Part shown: piece by piece, positions 3,434 to 49,790 of the stretch
Numbering within the stretch: the stretch's first letter is position 1
How the letters are laid out: each line of letters begins with the position of its first letter
Assembly (NCBI GenBank): GCA_963737905.1
Contig: CAVTUQ010000028.1
Coordinates: 160,001 to 224,000 of the forward strand
DNA length: 64,000 bases
Direction of reading: 5' to 3'
Origin: an uncultured delta proteobacterium
GTDB taxonomy: Bacteria > Desulfobacterota > Binatia > UBA9968
Notes under the pieces: model-generated
The model's input: only the letters and a program-made list of their open reading frames with translations
What the model was told of the DNA's origin: nothing
Database searches by the model: none
Translations under genes and position numbers: made by a program

Positions 3434-4005
3434 AAGCACGGAGCATGGAGCGCGGAGCACGGAGCCGGACGGGGAAATTTCGGATTTCGAATTTCGGATT
3501 GTTTTCCGACTTCTGCTCTCGTGCTCCGTGCGCTCTGCTAGTTGCTCTTTGCTCCTGCGCTTACCGCTTAGCTCCTAGCGCTTTGCTCTTGGCTCCCCGC
3601 TCCAAGCTCCCTGCTCCCAGCTGTTTTTCAAATCCGCAATCCGCAATCCGAAATTGTTCTTTGCTCTTACCGCTTCCTCTTGCTCCCTGCTCTGAACCAG
3701 AGGTCAGAGATCGAGACATGTTCAGCCGCCGAATCAGTAAATTCGCAGATGCAGAAACCCGATCTAAATTCGCAATGCAGAAACCCGAAAGGCTCAAGTC
3801 AGAGGCCAGCAATTTCGCAATCTCCGCAATCTATCTTACTTAGCTCTTTGCGCTTAGCTCTTAGTCTTAGTAAATCCGCAATTCGCAATTCGAAATCCGC
3901 AATTGTCTTTGCTCTTCCCCCTTACCCCTTACCTATTTGCTCTTAGCTCCCTGCTCTCTTGCTCCCTGCCCCCTGCTCCCCGCTCCAAGCTCCCTGCTCC
4001 TTGCT
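3434..4005. repeat. Mosaic of degenerate heptamer tandem repeats (GAGCNNG/GCTCCNT, AATYCGM, TTWGCTC, TCAGAGG families)
   Basis: 7-nt periodicity readable directly, e.g. gagcacg gagcatg gagcgcg; aatccgc aatccgc aatccga; both orientations present. Confidence 0.85.
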
Positions 4006-4192
4006 GTTCACCAAGTTGCCGGCCAGTAGACAGCGTCTACAGCAAGCAAATACCAACGCTTTTCAGATAGTTAGATGTTTTTACCTCGCGAGCTGACACC
4101 TGCGGTGAAAGCACTCGGATCTTACCAGGGCACTTCATGGAAAAATATCTCTTGTATTCAACGGTTTAGAGTAAATCCAAAATAGGATCAAT

Positions 4193-4208
4193 TGGCATAA
4201 CGGTTGCT
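4193..4208 (+). promoter_or_regulatory. Sigma-54 (-24/-12) promoter
   Basis: TGGCATAACGGTTGCT: GG-N10-GC consensus ~40 nt upstream of the FecR gene. Confidence 0.65.
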
Positions 4209-4248
4209 CCTGTGATACTACAGATTAACCCAGGAAAGAAGAAAAAAA

Positions 4249-4791
4249 ATGGCAAAAGTGATTCAGATGTTTCTGCAGTTACACGGGTGGAAGGGAAGCG
4301 CAGGACCGCAGAGACTCACGCGGCTGGTTTTCGCGCTTTTGGCTGGAGCAATCTTCACGTTGCTAGCCACGATCCCTGCCCTGGCGCAGACCCGTCAGGA
4401 GCAGGCCGAGCTAAAAGTGGTGGTGGGCGAAGTAGAGGTGCTCAGAAGAGGTACGACGACCTGGCAGGCGGCAAGCGTCGGGATGTTCCTTTCGGCCGGC
4501 GATGAGATCCGCGCCGCGCAAGATTCCGGGGCGGAGCTCGCTATGACTGACGGGAGCGTGGTCATGGTGTTCGCCCGGAGCCGGTTGCAGATCAAACAGC
4601 TCACGACCGACGCCGCGACCCGCACGTCATTTTTCCATCTGGTTGTCGGGGTAGTTCGGTACATTGTCGCGAAACCTGCAGTAACCTTGATCGGAACGCG
4701 TCAGAACGTTTTCTCCATCTCGACTCCGACGGCAGTCATGGCCGCAAGAGGCACAGACGGAATTATTTCCTACTACCCATCGCAGAACTAG
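4249..4791 (+). CDS. FecR domain-containing secreted protein (short paralog of 48478..49479)
   Basis: Signal peptide, GEVEV...L.AGDEIRA..DS.AEL...DGS, ISTPTAVMAARGT FecR motifs. Confidence 0.85.
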   Translation: MAKVIQMFLQLHGWKGSAGPQRLTRLVFALLAGAIFTLLATIPALAQTRQEQAELKVVVGEVEVLRRGTTTWQAASVGMFLSAGDEIRAAQDSGAELAMTDGSVVMVFARSRLQIKQLTTDAATRTSFFHLVVGVVRYIVAKPAVTLIGTRQNVFSISTPTAVMAARGTDGIISYYPSQN

Positions 4792-4967
4792 CACTATAGC
4801 AGGGAGCTTGGAGCGCGGAGCATGGAGCCGCTCTTTGCTCCCAGAGCCGGACAGCAAAAAGCGAAGCGCAAAGCGCCAAGAGTGAAGAGAAATCCGAAAT
4901 TCGCAATCCGCAATTACTTAGCTTCGCGCTCCATGCTCCCTGCTCTTAGCTCTTACCTCTCTGCCCT

Positions 4968-5648
4968 TTAGCGTTCCTGAAATTCGAAATCCGCAATCCG
5001 AAATTCGCAATTGCTTAGCTCCTTAGCTCTCTTGCTCCGCTGCTCCCTGCTTAACTTGCTCCCTGCTCTCCTGTCCCCATACACCCCCCGTCGCTGGAAC
5101 AACAGAACGAAAGCTTTCGCGAGAATGTAGGCGTCCAATCGGAGTGACCAGTTGTCAACGTACCAGACGTCCATCCGAACCCGCTCATTCCAGGGAACCA
5201 GGTTTCTGCCATGGATCCACGCCCATCCGGCCATCCCTGGCCTGAAATCAAATCGCCTGCTTTCTGACGGTCCGCAGTACGCGGCTTCGCTCGGTACCCA
5301 GGGCCGCGGCCCGACGATGCTCATGTCACCCTTGAGGACATTGAGGAGCTGCGGCAGCTCGTCCAGAGTCCATTTGCGCAACCAGCGCCCGACTCGCGTG
5401 ATGCGATCATCGTTCTCGCTTACAATCAGCCCATTCCCGATGGACTCAGCTCCGATCACCATGGTGCGGAATTTGTAGCAGCGAAACCTTCGCCGGTTCC
5501 TCCCCACACGATCCTGCACGAACAGAACTGGCCCGCCGTCATCCAACTTGATCGCCAGCGAGATCAAAGCGATGAGCGGAGAGAGCAGCAGCAGCGCGCT
5601 TGCTGCGACAACGATATCGAAGAGACGCTTCACGGCGAGGCTGACCAT
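4968..5648 (-). CDS. Bacterial sugar transferase (priming phosphoglycosyltransferase, PglC/WcaJ C-terminal type)
   Basis: KRLFDIVVA, F.Q.RVG, YKFRTM, DELPQLLNVLKGDMSIVGPRP; last ~35 aa are read through heptamer repeats. Confidence 0.93.
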   Translation of the reverse strand: MVSLAVKRLFDIVVAASALLLLSPLIALISLAIKLDDGGPVLFVQDRVGRNRRRFRCYKFRTMVIGAESIGNGLIVSENDDRITRVGRWLRKWTLDELPQLLNVLKGDMSIVGPRPWVPSEAAYCGPSESRRFDFRPGMAGWAWIHGRNLVPWNERVRMDVWYVDNWSLRLDAYILAKAFVLLFQRRGVYGDRRAGSKLSREQRSKRAKELSNCEFRIADFEFQER

Positions 5649-5651
5649 TGG

Positions 5652-6374
5652 AATTTCGGATTTCGGATTTCGGATTGCGGATTTATAACAGCAAACATAG
5701 CCTATGAAGAATTTTGGATTGCGGAGGAGGTATTATCTCGATGACAGAAAGATAAGTTTGTGAACTTGCAATTCAAAAATTTAAAATACTGACGAGCTGT
5801 TGCGGTCGAATCAGAAATTCGACATACGAAATCCGAAATTCGAAATTTCCTCAGACCGGCTTTGGCTTGTTCGCTCGCGTCGATCTTCCTATAGCGATGA
5901 AGATTGACAGGAGTTCACCAGCTTCCTTCAGTAAAGTCGTCCGGGCTTCAGTAATACCAAGGGAGACCTCCTCCATTACTTCTAGCCAGTACTGGGTTTC
6001 TGCAATTTCTTTTTCGACGATCCCGATCTTGTGGACAAAATCTGCGCGAGATTGCGCGCGATTAGCTTCGCGATAGTTCGCCCCGACTGATGTTCCTGAT
6101 TTCAGTAATTGATAGCCCAAAACGTCCGAAGTTTTCTTCTTCGGTAGCTCTTCCACGAAAAGGATAACGCTGACGGCGAACTTTTTCGTCCGTCGCTCTA
6201 GCTCATGCTTGTCCATGAAAGTACATTTCGGATTTCGGAATTGTTCTGAGTCGGGGTTAGGAAATCAAGAAGCGACCAGACAATCGAAAACATTTAGGAG
6301 CGTCTCAACACTTTGGTACCGGGCGAGTCCGGACAAATTCGAAATCCGCAATCCGAAATTCGAAATCCGCAATC
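5652..6374. mobile_element. Four-helix-bundle cassette copy 1 bounded by AATYCGM heptamer inverted arms
   Basis: Whole ~720-bp unit, including non-coding flanks, recurs at 12910..13607; mobility is inferred from the duplication. Confidence 0.6.
5851..6216 (-). CDS. Four helix bundle protein (23S rRNA IVP / TIGR02436-type)
   Basis: RTKKFA...QLLKSGTSVGANYREANRAQSRADFVHK...KE..ET.YWLE. Confidence 0.92.
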   Translation of the reverse strand: MDKHELERRTKKFAVSVILFVEELPKKKTSDVLGYQLLKSGTSVGANYREANRAQSRADFVHKIGIVEKEIAETQYWLEVMEEVSLGITEARTTLLKEAGELLSIFIAIGRSTRANKPKPV

Positions 6375-6454
6375 GCCTTTGCTCTTAGCTTTCTTGCTCC
6401 CTGCTCCCAGCTCATCCTTTACACAAATCCTACCGCTTGTTATAAATACTCGGA

Positions 6455-6757
6455 GTGGCTAAAAACCCAAAAAAAGCGGCATCTTACTCCGCGGTTTACA
6501 CGGTGGAGGAGTTCGCCAAAATTTTTAAGCTTTCACCGCAATCGGTACGAACCCTCATCCGAACGGGCGAGATTCCAGCCATTCGTATTGGGAAACAGCA
6601 CCGTATCCCTCAGGCGGTTGTCGACCACTATTTCGCTCAAGCGACCTCACCTCGGGAACGTGGGTTCGGCATGTGGAAAAAGAACCGCGTCCCAAGTCTT
6701 ACCTACGTCAACAAGCTGCGAGATCAAGAACAAAAAAAGCACAGAGCATGGAGCTAG
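6455..6757 (+). CDS. Excisionase-type helix-turn-helix protein, antitoxin-like, C-terminus runs into repeats
   Basis: YTVEEFA...V...IRTGEIPAIRIGKQHRIP (HTH_17-like) plus GFGMWK; opposite strand to the cluster. Confidence 0.7.
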   Translation: MAKNPKKAASYSAVYTVEEFAKIFKLSPQSVRTLIRTGEIPAIRIGKQHRIPQAVVDHYFAQATSPRERGFGMWKKNRVPSLTYVNKLRDQEQKKHRAWS

Positions 6758-7112
6758 GAGCGTGGAGCCGCCCTTAGCTCTTCATCCTTCGCACGTACCG
6801 CTTCGCGCTTATCTCTTAGTCCACAGTAAATCCGCAATTCGCAATTCGAAATCCGCAATTGGCTTCGCTCCCTGCTGTCGCTACCAGAGATCAGAGGTCG
6901 GAAGTCAGAGGTCAGAAAATTCGCAATCCGCAATCCGAAATTCGCAATTCCCTTTGCTCTTCCCCCTCACCCCTTTGCTCTTAGCAGTCTTTTAAATTCG
7001 CAATCCGCAATTCGAAATTCGAAATCGCCTTTGCCCTTAGCTCTCTTGCTCCGCGCTCCAAGCTCCCCGCTCCATGCTCTTACCCCTTACCCCTTTGCTC
7101 TTTGCCCCTTTC
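6738..7112. repeat. Heptamer repeat mosaic (four families)
   Basis: gagcatg; aatccgc aattcgc aattcga; tcagagg tcggaag tcagagg; ttacccc ttacccc tttgctc. Confidence 0.8.
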
Positions 7113-7114
7113 CC

Positions 7115-8344
7115 TCACCCCCCTGCCACCCTCCTCAACAGTTCGTCATACTGCGCAACCGCAACGTGCTTGGAGTGGTGCGCTTCCGCGTATCGGCGGC
7201 CTTGCTGCCCCATCTGCTCGCGCAGCGCGGCATCTTCATACAGCGTCACAATGGATTCGGCCAGGCGCTCAGCATCGCCGGGGCTAATGCAAAGACCACA
7301 GCCCGCGCTCGCCACAGCGCGCGCGACTTCGCTGTCGTGTTCCGCCGCTGCCAGGAGCGGCCGGCCGCTTGCCATGATTTCGTAGATCTTGGATGAAAAC
7401 GAATCGTTGGCCGCACCGTTTCGATATAAAGAGACTTGCACGTCCGAGGAGGCCCTCATCCACGGCAGGTTTTCGCGCGGCTGAAACGGCAGGAAGCGCA
7501 CATTGGTCAGCCTCAGCTTCGCAGCCTTTTCTTCCAGCTCGGCTTTCGCCACCCCATTGCCGACTATTAGAAAAAATATATCGCGCTGCTCCCTGAGGAG
7601 CAGGGCCGCATCCAGCAGGGTGTCGAGATCGTACACGTAGCCGAGGCTCCCCGCATAGCTGACGACAAATTTGTCAGACAAACCCTGTTCGCGGCTGAAA
7701 TCGTTTTCCCTCGGCAGCGGGCGAATAAATTCCGTATCGACGAAATTCGGGATCACCGAAACTTTTTGCTTCGGCACCTTCTTGGCCAACAAGCTCTCCC
7801 GCATGGCTGAAGTGATGACCGTCACATGCGCCGCTTTGCGGTACATGAAATTTTCCATCGACCTCAGGGCGGCGATGGCGTAAGGATTGTGAAGTTGGCC
7901 GGCACGAATCGGCACATCAGGGTAGAGGTCCTGAACGTTGTAGATGAACGGGGCTGATTTCAAATTTTCGAGCACCCACGCCGACAAGCCGCTGAAAAAA
8001 GAGCCGTTGGGACAGAGCACGACATCCCAGGCCCGCCGCGACAGCGCTCCGGTCACAGTTGCCAATGCGTTGTAGGAGACATAACTCATGAGCCGGTTAG
8101 CCATAGTTTTTTTTCCGGGAGCGTAGACATAAAGCCGAGTAACATCCATCTCCCCGTAACGCTCGTGCTCGACCAGCTTGCCGCGGTACTCATCCCACAC
8201 GCGAAAATTTTCATAATGCGGAAACGCCGTGATCACCGAGACCTCGTGGCCTCGTGCCGCCAACCCCTCGCAAAGCTGCGCCATCAGCAATCCGGTCGGA
8301 TTCACATCGGGCGGAAATTGGATGATAGGGAGGAGAATGCGCAT
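7115..8344 (-). CDS. Glycosyltransferase family 4 (WcaI/WbuB-like)
   Basis: FPPD...GHEVSVITAFPHY, QDLYPD, VIPNFVD, SKIYEIMASGRP. Confidence 0.9.
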   Translation of the reverse strand: MRILLPIIQFPPDVNPTGLLMAQLCEGLAARGHEVSVITAFPHYENFRVWDEYRGKLVEHERYGEMDVTRLYVYAPGKKTMANRLMSYVSYNALATVTGALSRRAWDVVLCPNGSFFSGLSAWVLENLKSAPFIYNVQDLYPDVPIRAGQLHNPYAIAALRSMENFMYRKAAHVTVITSAMRESLLAKKVPKQKVSVIPNFVDTEFIRPLPRENDFSREQGLSDKFVVSYAGSLGYVYDLDTLLDAALLLREQRDIFFLIVGNGVAKAELEEKAAKLRLTNVRFLPFQPRENLPWMRASSDVQVSLYRNGAANDSFSSKIYEIMASGRPLLAAAEHDSEVARAVASAGCGLCISPGDAERLAESIVTLYEDAALREQMGQQGRRYAEAHHSKHVAVAQYDELLRRVAGG

Positions 8345-8349
8345 GGCTG

Positions 8350-9670
<1,321 letters not shown>

Positions 9671-9673
9671 TAA

Positions 9674-10681
9674 TTATCGATAGTTAGTCATATGCGCTTC
9701 GCGCCGAGCTAGCTCCAGGTCGGCTTCGACCATGATCCGGACTAACTCTTCGAATTGCACTCTTGGTTCCCATTTTAATTTCCGTTTCGCCTTGGAGAAA
9801 TCGCCGACCAAGGTATCGACCTCGGCGGGACGTAGGTAGCGGCGGTCGATTTCGACATGATCGTGCCAATTCAGATCGAGCAAGCCGAACGCCTTATCAA
9901 CAAATTCCTTCACACTGTGACTCTCGCCGGTAGCGATAACGTAGTCGTCGGGCTTTTGCTGCCGCAGCATGAGCCACATAGCTTGAATGTAGTCGGGCGC
10001 ATAACCCCAGTCTCGTTTGGCCTCGAGATTACCCAGATAGAGTTTCTCTTGTAAACCGAGCTTGATTCGCGTCGCCGCCCGCGTGATCTTGCGACTAACG
10101 AAGGTCTCGCCTCGCCTCGGACTTTCATGATTAAACAGAATGCCGTTGCAAGCAAAAAGACCGTAGGCTTCGCGGTAATTGCGCACGATATAAAATCCGT
10201 AGGCCTTGGCGCAGCCGTAAGGACTGCGCGGATAAAAGGGCGTGGTTTCCTTTTGCGGAACTTCTTGAGCTAAGCCGAACAGTTCGCTCGACGACGCCTG
10301 ATAAAATTTCGGTTTGATCCCGGTTTCGCGTATCGCCTCCAACAGCCTCACCGTGCCGAGGCCGGTGATTTCGCCGGTATATTCCGGCACGTCAAAACTC
10401 ACCATGACATGGCTCTGCGCGCCCAGGTTATAGATCTCATCGGGTCGGATGTCGCGCAGTATGCGATTTAGAGAGCTCGCATCGTTCAGGTCGCCATACA
10501 CCAGCTTGAGACGCGGATTAGGCTCATGAGGATCCTGGTAAATATGATCGATGCGGCCGGTGTTGAATGAGCTGGATCGCCGTATGATGCCGTAAACGTC
10601 ATACCCTTTCTTCAGCAGGAACTCGGCCAAATACGAGCCGTCCTGCCCAGTGATACCGGTTATGAGAGCGGTGTTGGACAT
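9674..10681 (-). CDS. gmd: GDP-mannose 4,6-dehydratase
   Basis: [44 protein letters not shown]. Confidence 0.97.
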
Positions 10682-10689
10682 TTTAACTA

Positions 10690-10840
10690 ATGGCGGATGG
10701 CATATGGCTTATAGCGGATAGTTTATAGCAAATGGCTTATAGCGTATGGCGGATAGCTTATGGCGGCTGGTGACGTATAGATTATAGCAAATAGCAAATG
10801 GCTGATGGCGTATGGAATATAGCTTATAGGATGGCTGGCT
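10690..10840. repeat. ATRGCNN heptamer tandem array directly upstream of gmd
   Basis: atggcgg atggcat atggctt atagcgg atagttt atagcaa atggctt atagcgt atggcgg atagctt... Confidence 0.85.
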
Positions 10841-11082
10841 TAACGCGGGCTGAGGGTATTTCTGAATGCATTTATGTTGTACCCATTGGTACATGGACTA
10901 CTCTGTGGTGAAGAACGATTCGGATATATCACCGCGGAGGCGCGGAGGGCACAGAGTAAAATTTCTCAATAAAAAATACTCCCAACTCTGTGTGCTCTGC
11001 GTCTGTGGTGAATCTTCTTTCACAGTAAACCCAGAAGAGCCTTCTTTTCCGGGTACCTGTTACTATTTGCGATCGGCATGTG

Positions 11083-12905
11083 CTATACGCTAGTTTTCTC
11101 TACAAGAAAACTCCCGATGGCCAGCACATCCATCTTCGTTCGTTTGAAACAGTCAATCGCCTCTTCCGGCGTGCAAACGACCGGCTCGTTCTCATTGAAA
11201 GAGGTGTTAAGCAGGACCGGAACGCCGGTAAGATTTTCGAATTCTTTGATCAGTTTCCAGTAGCGCGGATTCCCATCACGGTCGACGGTTTGAAGCCTGC
11301 CCGTGCCGTCGACGTGAGTCGGTGCCGGAATCACGGAACGCTTCTCTTGCTTAACCTTATAGGCCATGAGCATGAACGGCGACGGATGGGTCTCTTCGAA
11401 ATAATCTCCGACGCGCTCAAGCAAGATCGACGGTGCGAAAGGACGAAACGGTTCGCGGTGTTTTATTCGGCTATTTAGCATGTCTTTCATCTCGGCCCGG
11501 CGCGGATCGACCACAATGCTCCGATTTCCCAAAGCACGAGGGCCAAATTCCATTCGTCCCTGAAACCACCCACGACTTTCCCCGTCGGCGATCTTCCGCG
11601 CCGTGGCCTTGACCAACTCTTCTTCACTCAATTCCGCTATCCGAAATCCGAAATCCGAAATGGTACGGATGACCGGTGACCAATGACCGACGACTTCTGG
11701 CTCCCTGCTTCCGGCTCCCTGCTCCGTGCTCCCCGCTCCCATCCCCTCACGCCTCACCCCTAACGCCTCACGAATTTGGCTATCGCCAAATTCCGGCCCC
11801 CAATACGTATGCTTCATCTCGAACGAGCGCGGTTGTCCCAGAATTTGATTCCACACATAAAAAGCTCCGCCGATAGCGAGCCCTGCGTCGCCGGCCGCGG
11901 ACTGGATATAGACTTTCTCAAACGGTGTCTTGGCAAGAATTTTCCCGTTGGCGACGCAGTTGTAAGCCACACCGCCGGCGAGGCAGAGTTTTTTTATGCC
12001 GTAGAGTTTGTAAAGTCTGTCGAGCATGGCGAGCATGGCATCTTCGAGCCGGACCTGCAGCGACGCGGCGATATTCTGATGCCGCTTTTCGACAGGCGCT
12101 CCTGCCGCCCTTTCGGGTCCTAGTTGTCTCGTGAGGAAATCTCCATAGAGCTTGCCGATCTTCGGCTCACCGTCCCGCCAGGTCATTTCCGGAGCCGATT
12201 TGTGATGGATGAAGTGATCCAACCCGAGTGAAAATCCGACATTGCCATTGATTTTAACGATCTCGTCGAAGCGGTCGCGATATTCCGGCTGCCCATAGGA
12301 GGCCAGACCCATGACCTTGTACTCATCGCCGTAGTTCCAAAAACCTAAATATTGAGTCAGCGCTGTGTAGTAGATGCCGAGTGAATGCGGGAATGCAATC
12401 GACCCTCGATCCTCTGATTTCCCTGCCCCAAACCCCACATCGTGCTGGCAAAGTCGCCCAATCCGTCGATCGACAACAAAGCCGCTTCCTCGAAAGGCGA
12501 AACAAAAAACGAACTCGCCAGATGGGCTTTGTGATGCTCCACCCGATGGATTTGCGCCTTGATCTCCTCACGCCTCACTCCTAACGCCTCACCCAATTCT
12601 TCCTGAATGCCAAAAAACTTCGCCTGCGCGCCAAGACGATTGAGCCCCAAGCGCGGTATTTTTACCGCATAAAGCGCCTTCCTCCAAATTCGCGCTCGCG
12701 GATCGCGCGCCACCGCCACGTGTTCAATGTCCTTAGCTTCCAAACCCGCTATCTTCAGGCAGGCTCGAATAGCGTTGGCCGGGAAACCCGCCGCGTGCTT
12801 TATGCGGATAAAGCGCTCCTCTTCCGCCGCCGCGACGAGCTGCCCGTCTATGATCAGTGCTGCGCTGGCGTCACCGTGGTAAGCGTTGATGCCGAGAATA
12901 ACCAT
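11083..12905 (-). CDS. Carbamoyltransferase (NodU/CmcH family), one frameshift near 12400-12440
   Basis: N-part ILGINAYHGDASAAL...AAAEEERF, EHHKAH, DGLGD; C-part DEYKVMGLASYG, AGGVAYNC, GDAG, EFGPRALGNRS, REPFRPFAP, LLNTSFN. Confidence 0.9.
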
Positions 12906-12909
12906 GAGT

Positions 12910-13607: not shown

Positions 13608-13683
13608 GAGTTTGCTCTTTGCTCTCTCTTGCTCCAAGCTCCCAGCTCCTTGCTCGTTGCTTTATTTCCCTTACCCCTAACGC

Positions 13684-19002: not shown

Positions 19003-21157
<2,155 letters not shown>

Positions 21158-38373: not shown

Positions 38374-38375
38374 TC

Positions 38376-39012: not shown

Positions 39013-39340
39013 AGCGCTATGATAACCGCCGACGCTGCAAAAACAAGAGCCACCAAGAGCCGTCAGCCAGAGATCAGAAGTCAGAAGTCGGAGATCAGAA
39101 TCTCGCTAAGCGGCAAGCGCTAAGGGCGAAGCGCAGAGATCGGAATTCAGAAATCAGAGGGTCAGCCAGCTATAAACCAGAGATCAGCGATCAGAGATCA
39201 GAAGTCGGCAAATTCGAAATTCGCAATTCGAAATTCGCAATCCGCATTTTCTTAGCTCGATGCTCCTCGCTCCCTGCTCCCTGCTCCATGCTCTTACCCC
39301 TTACCCCTTACCGCATTGCCCTTTGCTTCGCGCTTCGCGC

Positions 39341-42300: not shown

Positions 42301-42535
42301 CGAGCTGGAGAAACAGGACACCGACAAATAGGAGGAAAGGAACGTTCAGTGGGGTGCGAACGATTACCAGCTCTCCTTCAGCGATCATTTTGACAACCCA
42401 GGTCAAAACCGCGAAGAGAGCCAGCAGCTCGACAATCGCCAGCGGCCAGCCCTCCACCGAGCCATAGGGGAGGGGAGCGAACAGCAACAGAGCGTATAGC
42501 ACGCCGGTGACGGTCAGGTCAGCGATCCGACTCAT
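39341..42535 (-). CDS. O-antigen ligase family (Wzy_C) membrane protein fused to a long TPR region
   Basis: RVTGTFVNPDH, TLSRAG, PLFGTGLGSY, HAHND; C-terminal TPR-like repeats. Confidence 0.85.
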   Translation of the reverse strand: MSRIADLTVTGVLYALLLFAPLPYGSVEGWPLAIVELLALFAVLTWVVKMIAEGELVIVRTPLNVPFLLFVGVLFLQLALGNNALRNWALSPSAEAQLPSIFFSGSLAPASTRHAVGLFLTYAAVYFLVVNQFRERLQIDRLVRFLLVMGSLLAFYGLLDYLGGGYGVFGSKKLSYAGRVTGTFVNPDHFAAWLAMLIPLALGFLLSTKLLRRQRRRHSASTTTLSLRDYWITDEESAVAVKKFTPHRFPHRVWQELLLLFAITIMAVALVFTLSRAGVVSLILSLVVLVGILLVRQAARPSHLLLAALVLLTLTYAAWIGLDPILERFGLAFTGLQSRITQYWASLPMLRIAPLFGTGLGSYGDLFPRFQPIELTPGSVHFTHAHNDHLQFWIETGLVGGLILLVALWRVGRDLIGAHLLGRGHCFYRQADIEDIYRRDPYNVGIAIGALGGVVAVFFHSFLDFSLRIPANGILLATLLAIATVALHNRFFRNITQPLVTVRHYPIAGRFRQVSAGVIVAGLALVAVFSIVSPPLAENRFQSAVAFMESQASAPTMTTSLVQRLENERRALELLGRVISISPGHPAALRLRASKLEEQASRAWNRAVGPDATILRTQEVRTKVAMALLDQAEHDYRRALNDAPYEAALHERLAWLLGTRALIQAQSAGQAEAAVETRRLALTHFNRAVSLDPANPARHRVLALFAFSQARLPPPATPLRATALAAVRNAVALNPELLPELLDRALAVTSEREDLQALVPNTSVDRLYLATLLDKKGLRLQADESYQKALALASPGEKPIYRRLYANALIRARKLPEALSELESTIGLDPENPEIRLAIAEVLSSMGENSGALVNFQTALLLAKQSGDGAAAVAKAPAPDSDGLPPHRRLFVKLVQKELGQADSSTPVSRAYRINFALARYYTKRGQFALAIPIWEALVKENSADAGAYFQLAVALDGAGAWQAAFNAYKQAIELDRRNGEYKARFAQRLFENEKFFHAIELWQAILSQEPADLTTRLRLANAYVRVGELRDATREYERVLQLYPSHREAREALAALRSRLVGS

Positions 42536-42708
42536 AAAACTTTAAGCAGGGAAGCTTGGAGCATGGAGCCACAGATAGCATGGAGCTTGGAGCAGGGAGC
42601 ATGGAGCTAAGACACTCAAAGAGCATGGAGCATGGAGCTAAGACATAACGCCAAAGAAGCAGGGAGCTTAGAGCCACAGATAGCCGGGCTAGCGCTGTAG
42701 CAGCGGAG

Positions 42709-43074
42709 CTAGGATTTTAGAGTACGGCGAAAGGCTAAAAGCATTCTGCTTTCCTCTTCCAGTTCCGATAGTAACTTCCGGACCGTTTCAGACGGTAAAT
42801 AATTGTCTTTAGACAAAATCATCAGGATATTCGCTACCTCGAAAACTGACCGCCGGGACATATTCAGGAAGTTTGCGAAATCTGTATCAGATGCACTTCC
42901 CGATCCCTCAGCTATATTATTCGTAATACTTAGGGTTGCGCCACGTAATTGTTCAGCAAATCGGAATAATCTCCTCTCTTCGAGATTTTCCGCCAATCTG
43001 AATAGCTCAGCACTAATAGCAGCGCCTCGTTTCCAAATCTCTAACTCCTGAAATCGAAATTGTGTTTCACTCAT
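42709..43074 (-). CDS. Four helix bundle protein (fourth gene, third subtype)
   Basis: FRFQELEIWK...QLRGATLSITNNIAEGSG...F..FL..SRRS..E. Confidence 0.92.
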   Translation of the reverse strand: MSETQFRFQELEIWKRGAAISAELFRLAENLEERRLFRFAEQLRGATLSITNNIAEGSGSASDTDFANFLNMSRRSVFEVANILMILSKDNYLPSETVRKLLSELEEESRMLLAFRRTLKS

Positions 43075-43166
43075 CTCGTGCGTTCGCTTCCGCTCCCTCC
43101 GGCTCTCGCTCCTTAGCTCCATGCTCCATGCTTCTTGCTCCCACGCTCCCTGCTCGCTTAGCGGCA

Positions 43167-43895
43167 TTATCCCCCGCCATTTCCCCGGCCGTAGTGATAT
43201 CCGCCGTAGTACTGGTAAAAGTATCGATAGTAGTAGCCGTCACGGCGGGGGTCTACCTGGCTCAGAAGAACTCCGATCATCTTGCCCTGGACAGCTTCAA
43301 TTTGCTCGACCGCCCGCCGCAATAGCTCGCGCGGCGCGCCCCCGGATTTGAGCACCAGGATGACGCCATCGCTCAATGCCGCCAGCGCTGCAGTGTCAGC
43401 CACGGACATAATCGGCGCCGAATCGAAGAGCAAGGTGTCGAACTTGCCGGCGAGAGTATCGACAAACTCGCGCATCCGATTGGAGCCGAGAAGCTCCCAG
43501 GGATTGGGCGGGAGCGGACCACTTGGCACCAGGTAAAGATTCGGGGTCGATGTTGCTACCACTACTTGATCGACACTTTTCGCTTCGGCGAGCGCGACAG
43601 TCAGACCGATGCCATTGGATACACCGAAAAGGTCGTGCAGGCTCGGCTGGCGAAGATCGGAGTCGATCAGGCAGACCCTTCCTCCCGCCTGGGCCATGGC
43701 CAACCCCAGGTTGGCAACCGTGGTGGTCTTCCCCTCGCCCGGAGTGGCAGAGGTGATGAGAAGCTTGCGGTAACCATCGTCGAGGTTGGAAAACTGGAGG
43801 TTTGTCCGCAGGGTACGGTAGGCCTCGGCGGCGACCGATTTGGGATCCGTTTCGAGAATGAGACTAAGCGGAGGGGGCGGGGGTTTCTTCAGCAT
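43167..43895 (-). CDS. CpsD/CapB family bacterial tyrosine kinase
   Basis: AEAYRTLRTNL, GEGKTT, DSDLR.P, DSAP, C-terminal Tyr cluster YYYRYFYQYY. Confidence 0.93.
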   Translation of the reverse strand: MLKKPPPPPLSLILETDPKSVAAEAYRTLRTNLQFSNLDDGYRKLLITSATPGEGKTTTVANLGLAMAQAGGRVCLIDSDLRQPSLHDLFGVSNGIGLTVALAEAKSVDQVVVATSTPNLYLVPSGPLPPNPWELLGSNRMREFVDTLAGKFDTLLFDSAPIMSVADTAALAALSDGVILVLKSGGAPRELLRRAVEQIEAVQGKMIGVLLSQVDPRRDGYYYRYFYQYYGGYHYGRGNGGG

Positions 43896-44081
43896 AAATC
43901 ACATCCAATCAATGATTTGGGACGAATTATGCAGGGAGCTTGAACGGATCAGGATTTCGAATTTTTACTCTGCGGACTCGGGAGTCTCTGATCGGTAAAA
44001 CCTGCTCCGAGACTTGTTTCGCAACCGCGAGCGTCTGGTCCGATCAAATCCGAACTTCGCAATTCGAAATCCGAAATTTTC

Positions 44082-45458
44082 CTATCGTTTTGCTTCGAAA
44101 ATTGGCACCACGCCAATCACCGGGAACCCCAAGTAGCTCTGCACTTCTTGAGGTGTTCGAATGGTATTGTCCAGACGCTCCAGAAACAATGCCACACCGA
44201 TCCCCGCCAGCAGGCCCAGGATAATGGCGATGCCTATCTCGCGGGATTTTTGCGGTTTGATCGGGAACGCCGGCACCTGGGCCTCTTCCACGACCCGGAG
44301 ATTGTTGGTTTCCAGCGCCCCCGAGACGCCCATCTCCTTCAAACGGTTCAGCACCGTCTCTTGCATTTGCTGGTTGGAATTGACCTCGCGCTCGAGCCCC
44401 TGATAATCGATCTCTTTTTCATAGATCTTTTGCGCCTCTTGCCTGAGCTGATCGACGTTTTGCAAAAGGGCGTTTTCGCGCGCCCTGGCCACACGCAGTT
44501 CGGTATTAACGGCCTGGAGCATGGTCTGGATCTCGGCTTCGAGCTTTTTCTGGACCTCCTGCATCTGCGCCCGCAATTCAATAATCCTTGGGTGCTTGGG
44601 TCCGAGGCTCTCGAGGGCCCTGGACACCTCGATCCTCAAGTCGGCGGCCTGGGCTTTGAGCTTCTGGATCATGGGATTATCGGCGACGATGAAAATGGTC
44701 TGGGCGCCGACCGGGTCCTTGGCGATGGCCTGAAGCTCTTTGAGCTTGGCTTCCACGGCCAAGCGTTGGGCCTGAGCATCCAGGTAGGCGGTGTTGACAC
44801 TCATGATCTTGCCGGTCGTGATCTCCCGTTGCTCCTTGAGCCCGACGATTCCCGCCTTGACCCGATAGTTTTGCAGGGCCATGGAGGAATCGCGTACTTT
44901 GGTACTCAGCCCGGTCATCTGCTCGGAAAGCCACGCCAAAGCCTCGCGGGCGTTCTTCATTTTCATATCCAGGTTGTTTCGCGTATAGGCGCGCGCGATG
45001 CCAGTGGCCACGTCGGCCGCCACAGCCGGATCACGGTGCTCGAATTTGATATCCACGAGGCTGGTTTCCTTTACGGGCAACACCATGACCGACCTTAAAA
45101 GATCTGCGACGGGATCCTTGGCCTCGGCAAGCTCAGGGAGTCGCTTTGTCAGATTGAGATTCTCGATCGCCTTTTCGATGACCGGCCGGCTCTTGATCAG
45201 CTCATACTGGGTCAAATAGTACTGGCTGTATTGGCTGCCAGTGGGATTGACTTCCTGAATATTGATGACCTTGGGGGCTTCGGGTGAGATCAAGACCCGG
45301 GCACTGGCGCGGTAAATTGGCGTCTGGAGAAAGGCTCGGATGATCCCGGTCGCGGCGACGATGAGGAACAGGCTGATAATCGTCCAGCGGCGCTTATGGA
45401 AAAGCTGCAGATAGGTGCGGAGAAAATTCTGATCTTCGACAGGCGGCGGTAAAGGCAT
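44082..45458 (-). CDS. Polysaccharide co-polymerase / chain-length determinant (GumC, Wzc transmembrane part)
   Basis: Two TM segments, PIYRASA, coiled-coil periplasmic region, GPKHP, P.KP, DNTIRTP. Confidence 0.9.
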   Translation of the reverse strand: MPLPPPVEDQNFLRTYLQLFHKRRWTIISLFLIVAATGIIRAFLQTPIYRASARVLISPEAPKVINIQEVNPTGSQYSQYYLTQYELIKSRPVIEKAIENLNLTKRLPELAEAKDPVADLLRSVMVLPVKETSLVDIKFEHRDPAVAADVATGIARAYTRNNLDMKMKNAREALAWLSEQMTGLSTKVRDSSMALQNYRVKAGIVGLKEQREITTGKIMSVNTAYLDAQAQRLAVEAKLKELQAIAKDPVGAQTIFIVADNPMIQKLKAQAADLRIEVSRALESLGPKHPRIIELRAQMQEVQKKLEAEIQTMLQAVNTELRVARARENALLQNVDQLRQEAQKIYEKEIDYQGLEREVNSNQQMQETVLNRLKEMGVSGALETNNLRVVEEAQVPAFPIKPQKSREIGIAIILGLLAGIGVALFLERLDNTIRTPQEVQSYLGFPVIGVVPIFEAKR

Positions 45459-45643
45459 AATAACTCCCGTTTCGAATTGCGGATTTCGGATTGCGAATTG
45501 CGGATTTAAAAACAGCTAAGGGCAAAGAGCATGGAGCATGGAGCAAGGAAGCAAGAGAGCTAAGGGGTAAGCCAAAGACCTGATCCCTGAGCCCTCTGGC
45601 TCCTTGCTCGCTGCTCCGTGCTCCCTGCTCTTCGCTGACACGG

Positions 45644-46489
45644 TCAAAAGAAGCTCTCGGGGACAACGATGACGTCGTTCTCCCTGAGACGGATCGCCTT
45701 GTCCCGGCGACCCTGTTTGATGATCTCCGTCATATCGACCTGGATGACTTCTTCCCCCTTGGGCGTGGTCCGAATAATCCTCGTCCGGCCCGGCGCTGCG
45801 ATATTGGTAAACCCGCCTGCCAACGTGATGCCCTCGAGGATCGTGGTCTCCTGGTCGAGCTTATAGGCTCCCGGGCTCTTCACCTCGCCCAGGACAAAAA
45901 AGCCCTGGGCCTTGGGAATGAGAATGGTATCGCCGCTCTGCAGGGGTATATTTTCCTCCGCCCCTGCCTGGATCTTGGCGATGTCGTAGTGCTGGATATT
46001 GTTTTCGCGGGTAGCCTGCTGCTGCCCGGGCGCGGTTTTGTTTTGCGGGCGCACAAGAATGACCTGGCTACCGGCCAACTTGGACGGGCCACCGGCCTGA
46101 GACAGGACCTCCCAAAGTGTCAAGGGTCCCGTGAGAGCGTAGGTGCCCGGCTTCTCCGCCTCACCCAAAACGAAGACTTTCTTTGCCAGATACTCGGCCA
46201 CAGTGACGCGTACCTGGGGATTGACCAGGTAGTCCTTGTCTAAACGCTCGCGCAGGCGCTGGGCGATTTCTGTGGTCGTGAGATCTTCCACCTTGACTCT
46301 TCCGATTAGCGGAAAGTCGATGAAGCCATCACCGGATACTGAATACCGCTGAGAGAGATCCGCCTGCCCCCAAATGGCGACATCAAGCACATCGCGGGGG
46401 CCGACCCGATACTCCTGAGCCAGGGCCGGACATGAAAAGGCGAGGCACAGGAGCAAAAAAACAATTATTGATTTCCGACTCACCGGCAT
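45644..46489 (-). CDS. wza: Polysaccharide export protein with SLBB domains
   Basis: YRVGPRDVL, GFIDFPLIG, VLGE..KPG.Y twice, AGGF, DVIVVPESFF. Confidence 0.9.
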   Translation of the reverse strand: MPVSRKSIIVFLLLCLAFSCPALAQEYRVGPRDVLDVAIWGQADLSQRYSVSGDGFIDFPLIGRVKVEDLTTTEIAQRLRERLDKDYLVNPQVRVTVAEYLAKKVFVLGEAEKPGTYALTGPLTLWEVLSQAGGPSKLAGSQVILVRPQNKTAPGQQQATRENNIQHYDIAKIQAGAEENIPLQSGDTILIPKAQGFFVLGEVKSPGAYKLDQETTILEGITLAGGFTNIAAPGRTRIIRTTPKGEEVIQVDMTEIIKQGRRDKAIRLRENDVIVVPESFF

Positions 46490-46638
46490 CACTGTCTGTT
46501 CCTTTCCTGGGTCATGTTGATGCAAATCGAAACTCGAAAGTGGTGAAGACAACTCGGAGAACTCACCGCTGAGGCGCGGAGGGCGCGGAGAAAATAAACT
46601 AGCAGACCTAGTATCAGACTAGTCAAGATCACTCAGGC

Positions 46639-46715
46639 GTCACCCCCGGCTGTCTCTAGCTGGGGGGCCAGTGCGAAACTCCCCTGGATTCCCGCTAAAA
46701 GCATGCGGGAATGAC
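46639..46715. repeat. REP-like palindrome pair related to 413..507
   Basis: GTCACCCCCGGC..GCTGGGGGGCC and GGATTCCCGC..GCGGGAATGAC. Confidence 0.55.
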
Positions 46716-46826
46716 GGACTTCGGAAAAGGGAGCTTTCCGAAATTTTACTCTGTGAACTCGGCGTCTTTGCGGTGAATCCTCTTTCACAGTAAACCCGGA
46801 AGAACCGAAACATAGGCGGTCCATCG

Positions 46827-48161
46827 TTACAAAGCAAGGTCGAGGCTGATCCTTGCTCGATTGTCGTTGAAATCAAAGGTATTGAAGTTGGAATTACGAC
46901 GGTCAAAGTGATAGTTGGCGCGCACCGAGAGCCAGCGCGTAAAGGTGTAGGTGAGACCGGCGCCCGCGCCAAACAGAGTATCGGTGCGCTTGGCGGTCTG
47001 GGTGCCGACAGTGGCTGTGACAGGGTATTTGTTAAGCGCGCCGCCCAGGTTGGCCTGGAAGGACAAGTTGGGACTAAAGATATAGTTCATCGTCAGAATG
47101 CTGAAGATCGATATAAAGAAATCGTTATTGGCCTGTGAGGATTCAAAGGGGCGGCGCTCTAAGGTCAGGGTGAAACTGGTCTTGTCCGTCATCTGATAAC
47201 CCCATTGGTTGGTCGTCACCACACCACTAAATGATTTTCCACCTACCTGCTGAGGGTCGCGATACAGATACCCGACCTTGGTGAGCCCTCGGATCCTGGC
47301 CGTGGGTTCGCTGCGCACGCCCACCAGAAAGTCGTAATTGTTGGCGTCGCGATTTGTGCTCGAGCTTTGCAGGTACTGAATCCTCCCATAACCGGGTTCG
47401 AGAAGGACATCAGTCTTCGGAAAGATACGGTAGTAGCCGGTCAGCCCGACGCGATTTTCAACCCGGTCGAGAAACTCGTTCTGTTGCTGCAGGTAATTGA
47501 TATAGTACAGGTTGTGGCTTAGCGCGATCGAATAGCGTTCAGCGAGCCGGTACTCTACGCTGCTTCGCAGGACGTCCTGAAGATTCTTAACCGGTCCGGT
47601 AGTGTCTGTAAGAGGCGCCTCGGTGCTCTTCGAGAATACATTATTCATATTGACCAGCAGCCCGCCGGGAAAGTCGAGGTTCATGCCAAGGGTGGCGAAG
47701 TGATTAATGGTGTCCTGTTTCTTGAGCGTGGCATACTGTACGAATTCAGCCCGGTAGCCACCAAAAAAATCGTGACGGCCCGTAGGGAGGTGCAAAGCAA
47801 ACCCCGGGCTAATTCTGGTCGAGAAATCACCTTGCTCGTTCGACGGTGTCTGGAAAACGTTACTCTCGTACTGTTCTGTGAGGCTGAAGGCGGGATGGAT
47901 CCTCAGCTCTCCCCAACGAATACCGAGGGCGGCCGAACTAATGGCAGGATGGACCTTGCTCAGCTGGCTGTAGGCAACTCCGGAGAAGCAGAGAAAAATC
48001 GACCCGGCCAGTAAGAGAATTGCGGATTGCGAATTGCGAATTGCGAATTTAAAAGATAGCAGGGAGCTATGGAGCTCGGAGCATGGAGCTGGGAGCAACA
48101 CCCATTGCGGATTTGAAAGACAGCAAAGCGCTAAGCGGTAAGCGCAAAGCGTTAAGAGCAA
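46827..48161 (-). CDS. EPS-associated outer-membrane beta-barrel protein (BBP2-type)
   Basis: Alternating amphipathic strands, YESNVF, D....ISPG, terminal strand; located next to wza; start lies within repeats. Confidence 0.78.
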   Translation of the reverse strand: MLLTLCAYRLALCCLSNPQWVLLPAPCSELHSSLLSFKFAIRNSQSAILLLAGSIFLCFSGVAYSQLSKVHPAISSAALGIRWGELRIHPAFSLTEQYESNVFQTPSNEQGDFSTRISPGFALHLPTGRHDFFGGYRAEFVQYATLKKQDTINHFATLGMNLDFPGGLLVNMNNVFSKSTEAPLTDTTGPVKNLQDVLRSSVEYRLAERYSIALSHNLYYINYLQQQNEFLDRVENRVGLTGYYRIFPKTDVLLEPGYGRIQYLQSSSTNRDANNYDFLVGVRSEPTARIRGLTKVGYLYRDPQQVGGKSFSGVVTTNQWGYQMTDKTSFTLTLERRPFESSQANNDFFISIFSILTMNYIFSPNLSFQANLGGALNKYPVTATVGTQTAKRTDTLFGAGAGLTYTFTRWLSVRANYHFDRRNSNFNTFDFNDNRARISLDLAL

Positions 48162-48477
48162 GAGAGGTGAGGGCTGAGAGCAAGGCCATTGCGGATTTGA
48201 ATTGCGGATTTCGAGCTTAGCGGAGCTGCGAACTTGTGCAGCAGGGAGTCAACGACAATGCGCTCAGGGGAGCTAAGAGCTGAGCGCAAAGTTCGGATTT
48301 CGGATTGCGGATTTCGAATTGTGCTTCGGCTCTGCGCTCCATGCTCCTTGCTCCCTGCTGTTCCCGAATCAATTCGAAATCCGCAATTCCTCTGACCCCT
48401 TCGCTCTTAGCAGCCTTTAAATTCGCAATCCGCAATTCGAAATCCGCAATTAGCTTTGCTCCTTGCTCCCTGCTCCA
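48020..48477. repeat. Heptamer repeat mosaic with nested inverted arms
   Basis: attgcgg attgcga attgcga ... aattcgc aatccgc aattcga aatccgc; gagcatg/gctccat. Confidence 0.82.
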
Positions 48478-49520
48478 TCACTTGCTCGGCGGTGGCATAA
48501 ATGCGCTTGCTTCTACTGCGGCTGCTTGCTGTTTCTGGACGTCTGAGGCGTTTGTTGTGGTTCCGGCAACAAACTGCTCGAAATTCTGCGTCTGAACAGT
48601 AGGCGTGACCTGCGCCGCCGTTGCGATTGTGGTGGCAGGAAGGTTGGTGCTAAGAGCCGCCGTCGCTAGTTGCGTCACTTCGGCCTGGGTTGGACCTAGT
48701 AGATCAAAAGGCGAAGCATCATAAATCGCTTGCTCCACGGGTGTCCAAATCACCTGCAAAGGCGTCATGCTTTCAACAATTTGCTGAATGGCTTGTGGTG
48801 ACGCTCCAGCCTCCAGGGCAGCCCTGACAGAGTTTGGCAACACTATGAGTAGATTCAGTCTGCCAGCTTCTACCTGCCAGATCTGGCCATTTTCACAGAA
48901 GATCTGTTCCCCGGTGCCAACAGTACCGGGCACTGTTGGCAGAACAACAAGGGCAGAGACACCACCAAGACATAACAAAGTTGTCTGACCCCCACTTCCG
49001 CCAGCCGCGGTTGGGGCGACACCGGGCTTGGGAGCAGCGGTTCCCGCGACAGCCGCTGCCGCGGAATAGCCGAGAATGCCGTCGGTACCTCTTGCGGCCA
49101 TGACCGCGGTTGGCGTCGAGATCATGAACTGGTTCTGGCGCGTCCCTACCAGGGTCACCCCCGCCTGCGACACGACATAGCGAACCAGCCCGACGACCAG
49201 ATGGAACATGGATGTGCGTGTCTGGGCCTCGCTGGTGAGCTGGCGGACCTGCAACCGGCTCTGCGCAAAGACCATGAGGATGCTGCCGTCAACCATCGCA
49301 ATTTCGGCCCCGGAATTCTGCGCCGCCCGGACCTCATCACCCGTCGACAGAGGCATCCCAGCTTTTGCCGGCTGCCAGGTCGTCGTGCCTCTGCTGAGCA
49401 CCTCCACCTGGCCCACGACATTGGCAAGCTTGGCCTGATCCTGACGCACCTGCGCCGGCAATGGCGCCGTGGAAAACAACGTCAGTATTGCCCCGACAAA
49501 AAGAAAGAAAATCTTCGGGA
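48478..49520 (-). CDS. FecR domain-containing secreted protein with Ala/Thr/Pro-rich tail
   Basis: GQVEV...GDEVRA..NS.AEI...DGS, ISTPTAVMAARGT; hydrophobic signal upstream but no in-frame ATG before it. Confidence 0.82.
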
Positions 49521-49790
49521 TTCCGTGTGGCCCACCGCTGAGAGTGAGGGGTTAGAAAATTGCGAATTTCGGATTTCGAATTTCGAATTTTTACTCCGCA
49601 TGCTTTATGTGGTGAAAGAGAATCTTGGATATCTCACCACGGAGGCGTCAGTATGTGCCGCGGAGGAAAGAAAATAGCTGTTGACGCAGTCGCCGAGCGC
49701 GGAGAAAAAATTTTTCATAAAAATACTCCGAACTCTGCGGACTCGGTGTCTCTGCGGTGAATACTCTTGATGAAGTGAGTTTCAGGGGAT

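Follow-up and report, generated by a model that had tools for sequence, protein, structure and literature searches.

Why a bacterial polysaccharide cluster is interspersed with short repeat arrays that share a period of 7 nt, and why four genes of the PF05635/TIGR02436 family lie between such arrays, is the question raised by a stretch of DNA from an uncultured delta proteobacterium. This stretch, referred to as the window, comprises 64,000 nucleotides (positions 160001-224000 of contig 28) of a 6.7-Mb metagenome-assembled genome that consists of 46 contigs and is 87.5% complete with 6.7% contamination. According to a Pfam scan of 70 open reading frames (ORFs) of the window, the polysaccharide cluster occupies the minus strand from ~4.9 to 49.5 kb. 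It contains Bac_transf, GT4, epimerase, GDP-mannose dehydratase, carbamoyltransferase, GH123-like and asnB-like genes as well as GT1 and GT2 genes, a Wzm/Wzt ABC transporter, Wzy_C-TPR, Wzz/kinase parts, Wza and a beta-barrel porin, and two FecR-domain genes form its borders.

To our knowledge, PF05635/TIGR02436 is a large and widespread family with solved structures and no known function, and we know of no accepted explanation for tandem heptamers, the most over-represented longer simple repeats in bacteria. The bracketing of PF05635 genes by heptamer arrays is real and extends beyond the window. We consider it moderately probable that the cassettes found here, which are of the intervening sequence (IVS) type, and their ORF-less derivatives constitute one repeat system tied to a pentameric PF05635 protein, gene and arrays together being either selfish or domesticated.

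Inverted heptamer arrays on both sides of PF05635 genes

The four PF05635/TIGR02436 genes of the window (5851-6216, 13013-13591, 34668-35090 and 42709-43167) are all encoded on the minus strand. Their scores of 61.7, 56.4, 105.1 and 92.2 bits for PF05635 and of 81.3, 74.1, 97.3 and 89.5 bits for TIGR02436 exceed the curated cut-offs of 33.8 and 24 bits, respectively, and inverted arrays flank all four on both sides. The description of four four-helix-bundle genes inside repeat arms, given in a first-pass annotation of this DNA, therefore holds.

Cassette A (5649-6413, minus strand) fills the gap that separates the GT4 gene (7115-8344) from the Bac_transf gene (4968-5648). Its arrays, as located by Tandem Repeats Finder (TRF), are an outer array at 6335-6374, an inner array at 6225-6239, the 3' arm at 5809-5847 and a further outer array at 5653-5684 that abuts the ATG of Bac_transf. 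Cassette B (12906-13690, minus strand; repeat family D4), a ~95% identical copy of cassette A, is intergenic and lies upstream of the carbamoyltransferase gene, with arrays at 13576-13606, 13456-13470, 13040-13078 and 12918-12942; here the PF05635 match spans 13136-13426, the listed ORF being extended at both ends. Cassette C (34641-35125, minus strand) is situated between the Wzm gene (35128-35973) and the Wzt gene (33282-34637) and is composed of a 5' arm of the AGGTCAG type (35095-35125, read on the minus strand), the gene and a 3' arm (34641-34686). Cassette D (42553-43167, minus strand), located between a tyrosine-kinase-like ATPase gene (43167-43895) and the Wzy_C-TPR gene (39341-42535), has a 5' arm of the GGAGCAT type on the minus strand (43116-43155) and a 3' arm at 42553-42638.

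Genome-wide, 11 PF05635 matches were found. A lag-7 self-match detector (at least 19 matches in a 28-nt window) reports an array within 300 nt of 9 of these genes as compared to 7.5% of 5979 crude genes, and the remaining two possess arms of 9-mer GTTCAA repeats. The bracket was quantified by the inverted-flank score, i.e. the ungapped inverted-repeat score between two 230-nt flanks, which is at least 13 for all 11 genes, whereas the 95th and 99th percentiles of 396 small control genes are 10 and 13.6. Among 27 loci of relatives, which remained from 30 after removal of the source-genome locus and two loci at contig ends, the score exceeds 10 in 22 and is at least 13 in 18; leaving aside L002 and L027, the genomes of which are flagged unpublished, these counts become 20 and 16 of 25. 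For a sample across phyla, one genome per species was taken and the best 80 of 590 confirmed relatives were kept, seven of which were dropped as they are cut by contig ends; since the query was a close four-sequence alignment, these best 80 loci are biased toward one PF05635 subfamily. They derive from Nitrospirota, Bacteroidota, several classes of Proteobacteria, Acidobacteriota, Clostridia, Planctomycetota, Verrucomicrobiota, Chlorobi, Gemmatimonadota and others, with isolates among the sources, and the closest named loci among the best 80 of 590 belong to metagenome-assembled genomes of Nitrospirales, Chitinophagaceae and Methylomirabilis. The score is at least 13 in 59 of 73 loci, compared to 3 of 132 controls taken from these loci at positions displaced by 900 nt. 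TRF reports a tandem repeat, mostly of period 7 or a multiple thereof, upstream of PF05635 genes in 91 of 109 flanks and downstream in 95 of 109, compared to 10 of 89 and 18 of 92 control windows placed 700 nt further out. These comparisons show that the inverted-array bracket is a family-wide hallmark of PF05635 genes. A second Wzm-PF05635-Wzt arrangement was noticed at C3:88000-102484, together with another PF05635 gene beside a carbamoyltransferase gene, and its arm families are unlike those of the window.

The lag-7 detector finds 577 arrays in the genome, 117 of them inside the window, which represents 0.95% of the genome, and the four most array-rich 10-kb bins of the genome all fall within it. 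Control lags of 4, 5, 6, 8 and 10-13 yield 10-116 arrays each genome-wide, lag 9 yields 325 and lag 14 yields 267. The clustering of period-7 repeats that had been claimed for this locus is thus confirmed by a genome-wide lag test. In the window, TRF returns ~150 rows, mostly of period 7, 14 or 21, at 591-629, 3435-21134 and 34384-49590, and no period-7 row at 21.2-34.3 kb or beyond 49.6 kb. The first-pass annotation had described the arrays as dense at 3.4-21 and 34-49.6 kb and as essentially absent from 21-34 and 50-64 kb, which is correct for period 7 but overlooks a tight hairpin of 9-mer GTTCAA arrays at 56623-56694 (TRF), outside its range and belonging to the family that also supplies the PF05635 gene arms on contig C7. 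The segment at 21200-34300, which harbors GT1, GT2 and methyltransferase-like genes and genes of unknown function, is free of period-7 arrays and may, as a guess, be a more recently exchanged serotype-specific segment.

A typical array has 3-6 units and a median length of 31 nt, in keeping with the ~4-6 units noted before. About two thirds of the array bases are located outside crude ORFs, which take up 84% of the genome. A start a few bases after a stop codon and an end a few bases before the next ATG, which the first-pass annotation had noted as frequent, is directly seen at 9474-9673, 34641-35125 and 5649-6413, but some arrays reside within coding sequence. A second census, restricted to arrays that do not overlap, have a period of 7-10 and span 21 nt or more, gives 1026 arrays in the genome. 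A same-family partner no more than 600 nt away is inverted for 210 of these and direct for 43. Inverted partners are separated by a median of 25 nt, with a second peak of spacings at 350-550 nt; these wide gaps hold cargo, which consists of PF05635 genes and, in one case, of a cupin gene that has GTTCAA arms. In the window, ~110 arrays without an ORF are present as tight hairpins, single arrays or composite blocks. The leading cores in the genome are AAC/GTT, AAT/ATT, AGC/GCT and CTC/GAG, and AGT as a universal core was rejected for this genome because its leading cores differ.

The regions that come next in array richness are tandemly arranged ABC substrate-binding paralogues (PF04392, NMT1) in long clusters, together with another polysaccharide locus. 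We thus rejected the arrays as a specific mark of polysaccharide loci, and the first-pass annotation has to be corrected in that the repeat families are not confined to such loci. Paralogue clusters with arrays in their spacers were observed at C27:1-20000, C7:398000-412000, C29:80001-100000, C31:58000-72000 and C21:48000-62000, and in two of such clusters a PF05635 gene is positioned between paralogues.

Array size, core specificity and co-occurrence with the gene family

The lengths of period-7 arrays peak genome-wide at 31-33 nt (166 of 661 rows) and fall sharply after 34 nt without a smooth decay, those of period-9 arrays peak at 38-39 nt, and periods 6 and 8 have no such peak. Since 31 nt at period 7 and 38-39 nt at period 9 both equal four periods plus three bases, they correspond to five short cores. 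Across phyla, the arms that flank PF05635 genes are most often 30-32 nt long. These distributions show that the arrays have a preferred size of five cores. Two solved sequence relatives of the proteins, 2RLD (E 6.6e-10) and 2GSC (E 3.4e-9), contain five chains per entry. A ring that would read about five heptamers, as put forward in the first-pass annotation, is thereby the best supported reading, the evidence for it being indirect.

In the PF05635 elements, the upstream arm is G-rich (G 178, C 60) and the downstream arm C-rich (C 213, G 65); counted by element, 63 begin with the G-rich and 11 with the C-rich arm. For 103 inverted pairs of the genome, the corresponding numbers are 78 and 24 with one tie, and the exceptions are mostly GTTCAA pairs, which are themselves of constant polarity. 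As this topology is identical on both strands, polarity is a property of the element and not of gene orientation. Among 66 upstream units, 50 contain AG and GT dinucleotides and 27 contain AGT, and the positions of AG+1 are slightly better conserved within arrays than the others (0.93-0.96 vs 0.85-0.87). An arm unit is common to 38-71% of protein pairs that are at least 60% identical, compared to 3.5% of pairs below 50% identity, and eight genes from seven genomes that share one protein motif all have GTTCAA cores at a spacing of 7, 8, 9 or 10 nt. These data show that array cores follow the subfamily of the protein. A core that is conserved while the spacers are free and the period varies fits a protein-binding repeat and is also expected from co-inheritance of whole elements. 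Moreover, an arm unit of one of the 11 PF05635 genes is matched at no fewer than 6 of 7 bases in 616 of the 1026 arrays of the genome and in 64 of 76 arrays of the window, chance being roughly estimated at ~20%.

We further surveyed 151 genomes drawn evenly from the phylum, 86 of which are PF05635-positive (E<=1e-8). Five AGT cores at 7-nt spacing were detected in 66 of the 151 genomes, the reversed pattern (five TGA cores) gave similar counts, and the same cores at 6-nt spacing were found in 6. Either period-7 pattern is present in 70 of the 86 positive and in 12 of the 65 negative genomes (odds ratio 19; Spearman correlation with gene count 0.71), the p-values overstating the association because the genomes are mutually related. 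PF05635 genes and period-7 arrays hence co-occur at the level of genomes, as the first-pass annotation had anticipated. G073, with a weak full-length PF05635 match only, is an exception. Lag-7 arrays in 200-kb samples of four related genomes, which are small and mixed, number 13 in G027 and zero in G025; in the two PF05635-negative genomes sampled, the GC content is 65-68% and the background is high whichever lag is used.

We propose the following mechanism, in which the polysaccharide cluster would have been colonised by one kind of small repeat element. Its building block would be an array of about five degenerate heptamers (~31 nt), and two inverted arrays of the same family would make up a bracket able to fold as a hairpin. 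The four brackets that enclose a PF05635/TIGR02436 gene would have the architecture of the S23p-type IVS, set between the protein-coding genes of an operon. A homopentameric ring might read the five-unit array of its own family with one heptamer per subunit, probably on single-stranded nucleic acid. ORF-less arrays would far outnumber gene-bearing copies, as repetitive extragenic palindromic (REP) sequences outnumber RAYT genes, and by analogy with the rRNA element the brackets may give rise to long RNA stems open to RNase III cleavage. Array binding by the protein, mobilisation and regulation are putative activities. More tentatively, and with less than even confidence, we suggest that PF05635/TIGR02436 proteins are sequence-specific readers of five heptamers, that each paralogue forms a genome-wide selfish or regulatory network with its array family, that the rRNA IVS is its best-known landing site, and that such networks underlie much of the bacterial heptamer excess including that of Geobacter, Xanthomonas, Nostoc, Beggiatoaceae and the cyanobacterial short tandemly repeated repetitive (STRR) sequences. 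The PF05635 family and the heptamer excess would then be linked by the match of five cores to a pentamer, by the core that tracks the subfamily and by the co-occurrence in genomes; two open questions would become one, namely whether the ring binds its own five-unit array, and the rRNA IVS would be reframed as one site of a broader element.

We compared these elements to known systems. REP sequences and REPINs are intergenic hairpins of operons that are dispersed without an ORF and also flank the few RAYT gene copies in inverted orientation; they outnumber the RAYT genes, and each RAYT subfamily has its own repeat family. Few gene copies, many dispersed ORF-less copies and a subfamily-specific repeat are likewise found here. 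Unlike RAYT, however, the PF05635 protein is a small four-helix bundle without a known catalytic fold and not a Y1 transposase, 7- to 10-mer arrays of the families described here flank none of the five Y1_Tnp genes of the genome, and the repeat is an array of five heptamers instead of a single palindrome. TRAP is a ring of identical subunits that binds evenly spaced RNA triplets. The five cores of the arrays and the five chains of the solved homologues would be consistent with a mode of this kind, the binding being putative here; fold, spacing (7-10 nt) and the arrangement of arrays on both strands as inverted pairs are different. The cyanobacterial STRR are another heptamer repeat family. With the IVS of 23S rRNA genes that carry an S23p ORF (Coxiella, Leptospira, Xanthomonas, Brucella), the window elements share a PF05635 ORF enclosed in the stem loop of terminal inverted repeats, but they are located between or inside protein-coding genes and not in a 23S rRNA gene (helix 25 or 45), and they comprise four gene copies plus ~110 ORF-less arrays of several families. 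One rRNA case that combines bracket and heptamers is already published: passages of PMC4990558 on the Coxiella IVS describe a terminal stem of 28 bp within which RNase III cuts, three tandem heptamers upstream of the IVS ORF with a copy number that varies among strains, and cite the Xanthomonas S23p protein as a homopentameric toroid. A link of PF05635 to Avd of diversity-generating retroelements is drawn in a passage of PMC10053308. The window gene 34668-35090 encodes a four-helix bundle homologous to Avd (PF22296, E 1.4e-12; NF033474, 41.8 bits), but we rejected it as an Avd of a retroelement because 41.8 bits lie below the equivalog cut-off of 80 and a neighbouring reverse transcriptase is lacking, with RVT_1 absent from the window and the only such gene of the genome on another contig.

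Tandem heptamers themselves have been described repeatedly. According to the passages available from the respective articles, Geobacter metallireducens has 49 elements of four GGGACCG repeats and five tandem heptamers in opposite-strand pairs that were assigned to an unidentified global regulator (PMC2700814), Xanthomonas and Nostoc have 70-75 convergent pairs of GGGAATC arrays (PMC4692102), and Beggiatoaceae have TAACTGA repeats that are common to Cyanobacteria and Bacteroidetes (PMC4679880). These repeats resemble the arrays of the window in that 4-5 tandem heptamers, often in opposite-strand pairs, are placed in intergenic and sometimes intragenic positions in tens of copies, and a binding protein has been postulated for such repeats; the sequences differ. 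PF05635 or four-helix-bundle genes are unmentioned in these passages, and the term four-helix is absent from the main texts of the three articles, the supplements of which, possibly listing adjacent genes, were outside our search. A paper that links PF05635 genes to heptamer arrays was likewise not found in a search that covered neither subscription journals nor supplements.

Insertion, RNA folding and rival explanations

Evidence for insertion stems from G016, which belongs to a different genus of this family and has an orthologous locus. There, the Bac_transf and GT4 genes overlap, whereas the window has 1466 nt at this site containing cassette A, a helix-turn-helix (HTH) ORF and arrays; likewise, between the GDP-mannose dehydratase and epimerase genes, stop codon and following ATG are separated by ~6 nt in G016 compared to ~195 nt of arrays in the window. 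Cassettes A and B are homologous over ~780 nt, a stretch that begins directly behind the stop codon of the upstream gene and ends at the ATG of the downstream gene, which is a different one for each cassette. The empty sites of G016 and the duplicated 780-nt cassette show insertion; a comparison of empty and filled sites had been proposed in the first-pass annotation. In three runs of a single study, metagenome contigs join 34672 to 35095, with 23 other letters in between, and thereby leave out the PF05635 ORF; this joint was rejected as an empty site, because its shorter side comprises just 20 letters and the arms are repeated elsewhere.

The first-pass annotation had regarded the elements as mRNA intervening elements with stem-forming arms. 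Compared to shuffled sequences, the minus-strand RNA of cassette C folds with a z of -5.3 (dG -187 kcal/mol) into a stem that starts directly behind the stop codon of Wzm and ends shortly ahead of the ATG of Wzt, and z is -5.9 for cassette D and -4.0 for the block at 9474-9673. Hence, the capacity to form stems and the IVS-like build stand. Selection on the RNA stem, however, is not supported. A G:U bias was not detected in 101 stems (182 G:U vs 191 A:C among 373 transition-type mismatches), nor was covariation between the arms (in-register identity of 0.847 vs 0.843 with shuffled unit order), which reached significance (p<=0.05) in 1 of 45 elements. The conserved trait is that either side carries the family core about five times, in inverted orientation, and not a precise helix. 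Where the neighbouring genes are co-directional, the PF05635 gene is in sense orientation in 70 cases and antisense in 4, which fits expression by read-through from the host operon.

Several observations weigh against a repeat system tied to the PF05635 protein, among them, for the RNA part of the proposed mechanism, the lack of G:U bias and covariation. The chance level given above for the match of arrays to arm units is a rough estimate and not a computed value. Arrays outnumber PF05635 genes by ~50-100 to 1. A cupin-like ORF of 111 aa (C35:17178-17635) is bracketed by inverted 9-mer GTTCAA arrays and is the only bracket cargo outside the PF05635 family found in the genome. G163, a genome of 96% completeness, has 77 pattern matches and zero PF05635 matches even at E 0.01, G025 has 2 PF05635 genes and zero lag-7 arrays in the 200 kb sampled, and the relatedness of the surveyed genomes has already been mentioned. 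Finally, a transposase or reverse transcriptase linked to the arrays was not found in the genome: it contains five Y1_Tnp genes and one reverse transcriptase (RVT_1) gene at C25:346127, and none of these is flanked by arrays.

Four other explanations have to be considered. That the arrays are artefacts of metagenome assembly is refuted for practical purposes; while the source is a metagenome-assembled genome of the quality stated above with several frameshifted genes, the same architecture is present in at least 100 independent genomes, isolates among them, and contigs from four runs of one soil study span several arrays. If they were instead simple repeats made by slippage, PF05635 genes would merely land or survive in repeat-rich hairpin spacers and the protein would not read the arrays. 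Heptanucleotides as the most abundant repeat class, with polymerase slippage as the proposed cause (Mrazek 2007, as cited in passages of PMC4679880 and PMC4692102), would be in line with this, as would the vast excess of ORF-less arrays over genes, the arrays of G163 and the bracketed cupin gene. We nevertheless judge slippage quite improbable, given that array lengths are not geometric but peak at five cores for periods 7 and 9, that inverted pairs are five times as frequent as direct ones (210 vs 43) and of fixed polarity (78 vs 24; 63 vs 11), that the core goes with the protein subfamily whereas its spacing is variable, and that genes and arrays co-occur at the genome level.

The brackets might also be selected RNA structures, either mRNA elements cut by RNase III or REP-like stabiliser hairpins, that tune the neighbouring cistrons, with the protein being incidental or autoregulatory. 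Folds far better than those of shuffled sequences, the excess of operon sense orientation and arrays that run from stop codon to next start codon speak for such a role, as does the RNase III cleavage within the stem of the rRNA relatives (in a passage of PMC4990558), and a G-rich arm that comes first would presumably avoid an exposed C-rich RNA stretch. The mismatches without a G:U excess, the arms that do not covary and the many arrays that are solitary or form same-sense blocks inside genes, partnerless, point the other way, and we hold this explanation for rather unlikely. A possible account, which we consider less likely than not, is that the elements are mobile units at the DNA level, of the foldback kind or that of a MITE (miniature inverted-repeat transposable element), or cassettes shuffled by homologous recombination between arrays, the enzyme being encoded elsewhere. 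Inverted arms are present, sites filled in the window are empty in G016, a whole 780-nt cassette was recently duplicated with ends at array borders, insertions are found inside genes, the mismatch pattern is symmetric between strands, and arrays pile up in accessory gene clusters. Against DNA mobility of this kind stand the arms, which are not exact inverted copies, the absence of target-site duplications at the two junction sets inspected (9474-9673 with the G016 gaps, and cassettes A and B) and the lack of array flanks at the Y1 transposase and reverse transcriptase genes. A transposase or recombinase domain was not detected among the 70 Pfam-scanned ORFs of the window either, for which the corresponding statement of the first-pass annotation thus remains valid.

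Array blocks without a PF05635 gene and other features of the window

Among the array blocks without an ORF, the one at 9474-9673 (minus strand), between the GDP-mannose dehydratase and epimerase genes, consists of GGAGCAN and GCTCCNN arrays that form a stem enclosing two other arrays. Three cases of arrays inside coding sequence were identified in the window, all on the minus strand. A cargo-free hairpin is located in frame at 34384-34499 in the N-terminal linker of Wzt, CAGAGNT arrays being followed by ACCTCYG arrays, and the Pfam ABC_tran domain of Wzt begins only at residue 90. In the carbamoyltransferase, an in-frame block of four same-sense arrays (11639-11772) occupies the interdomain linker; the G016 orthologue possesses a four-array block at the same site, with two families in common and two different. 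The asnB-like gene (19484-20949), which is read in several frames and is thus disrupted in the assembly, contains arrays at 19484-19580, 20216-20248, 20657-20785 and 20862-20949 (TRF, Pfam). With arrays in coding sequence and the asnB-like gene disrupted in the assembly, the first-pass view that cargo would be folded out and the operon left intact is a conjecture.

Composite array blocks at 35966-36213 and 37556-37850 (minus strand, repeat families D3 and D6) flank a DUF433/DUF5615 pair of toxin-antitoxin type (36840-37633) as direct repeats; small genes of toxin-antitoxin type extend over 36840-38630. At 3435-5077, where the array-rich region has its left border, dense multi-family arrays surround a FecR-domain gene (4249-4791), and a further block (38655-39341, TRF) is placed between a small DUF2281 gene and the Wzy_C-TPR gene. 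Gap arrays were found by TRF at 45476-45630 (Wza/Wzz), 48017-48476 (porin/FecR) and 49558-49590 (upstream of FecR), and independent metagenome contigs span 45200-45549 and 45577-45999.

Open frames of 100-140 aa that are built of arrays alone and have no Pfam match, e.g. 3430-3843 and 6588-6995, would be false gene calls. For annotation, array-derived ORFs, in-frame array linkers and extended PF05635 ORFs should generally be regarded as artefacts or insertions. Rfam families gave zero matches in the window, which hence contains no rRNA by Rfam, and PADLOC returned no defence-system match for the PF05635 proteins. An HTH_17 ORF at 6455-6757 on the opposite (plus) strand, between array blocks, has a weak PADLOC match to mads_1 (E 2.4e-6). 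An inverted repeat of 345 nt (4420-4764 vs 49075-49419, 75% complementary) is contained in the two bordering FecR-domain genes, with the array-rich region in between.

Several genes of the cluster are present in pieces, namely those of the carbamoyltransferase (12357-12905 / 11083-12438), the GH123-like protein (13684-16739) and GT2 (28528-29695), and the carbamoyltransferase of the relative G016 is intact with 611 aa. As several of the frameshifts coincide with homopolymer runs, and as frameshifts are found where the cluster is free of arrays as well, errors of assembly may have caused them, and the split genes can therefore not be confidently called pseudogenes. Two further dispersed elements were observed. 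One at 46620-46740 (~90 nt) has 11 copies in the genome and dozens in relatives, and many metagenome contigs break inside it at 46683 and 46721. The other, at 10895-11055, is ~130-160 nt long with an internal inverted repeat and has no relation to the heptamer arrays; 26 contigs of the genome together carry 48 copies that measure 50 nt or more, and many more are present in five relatives.

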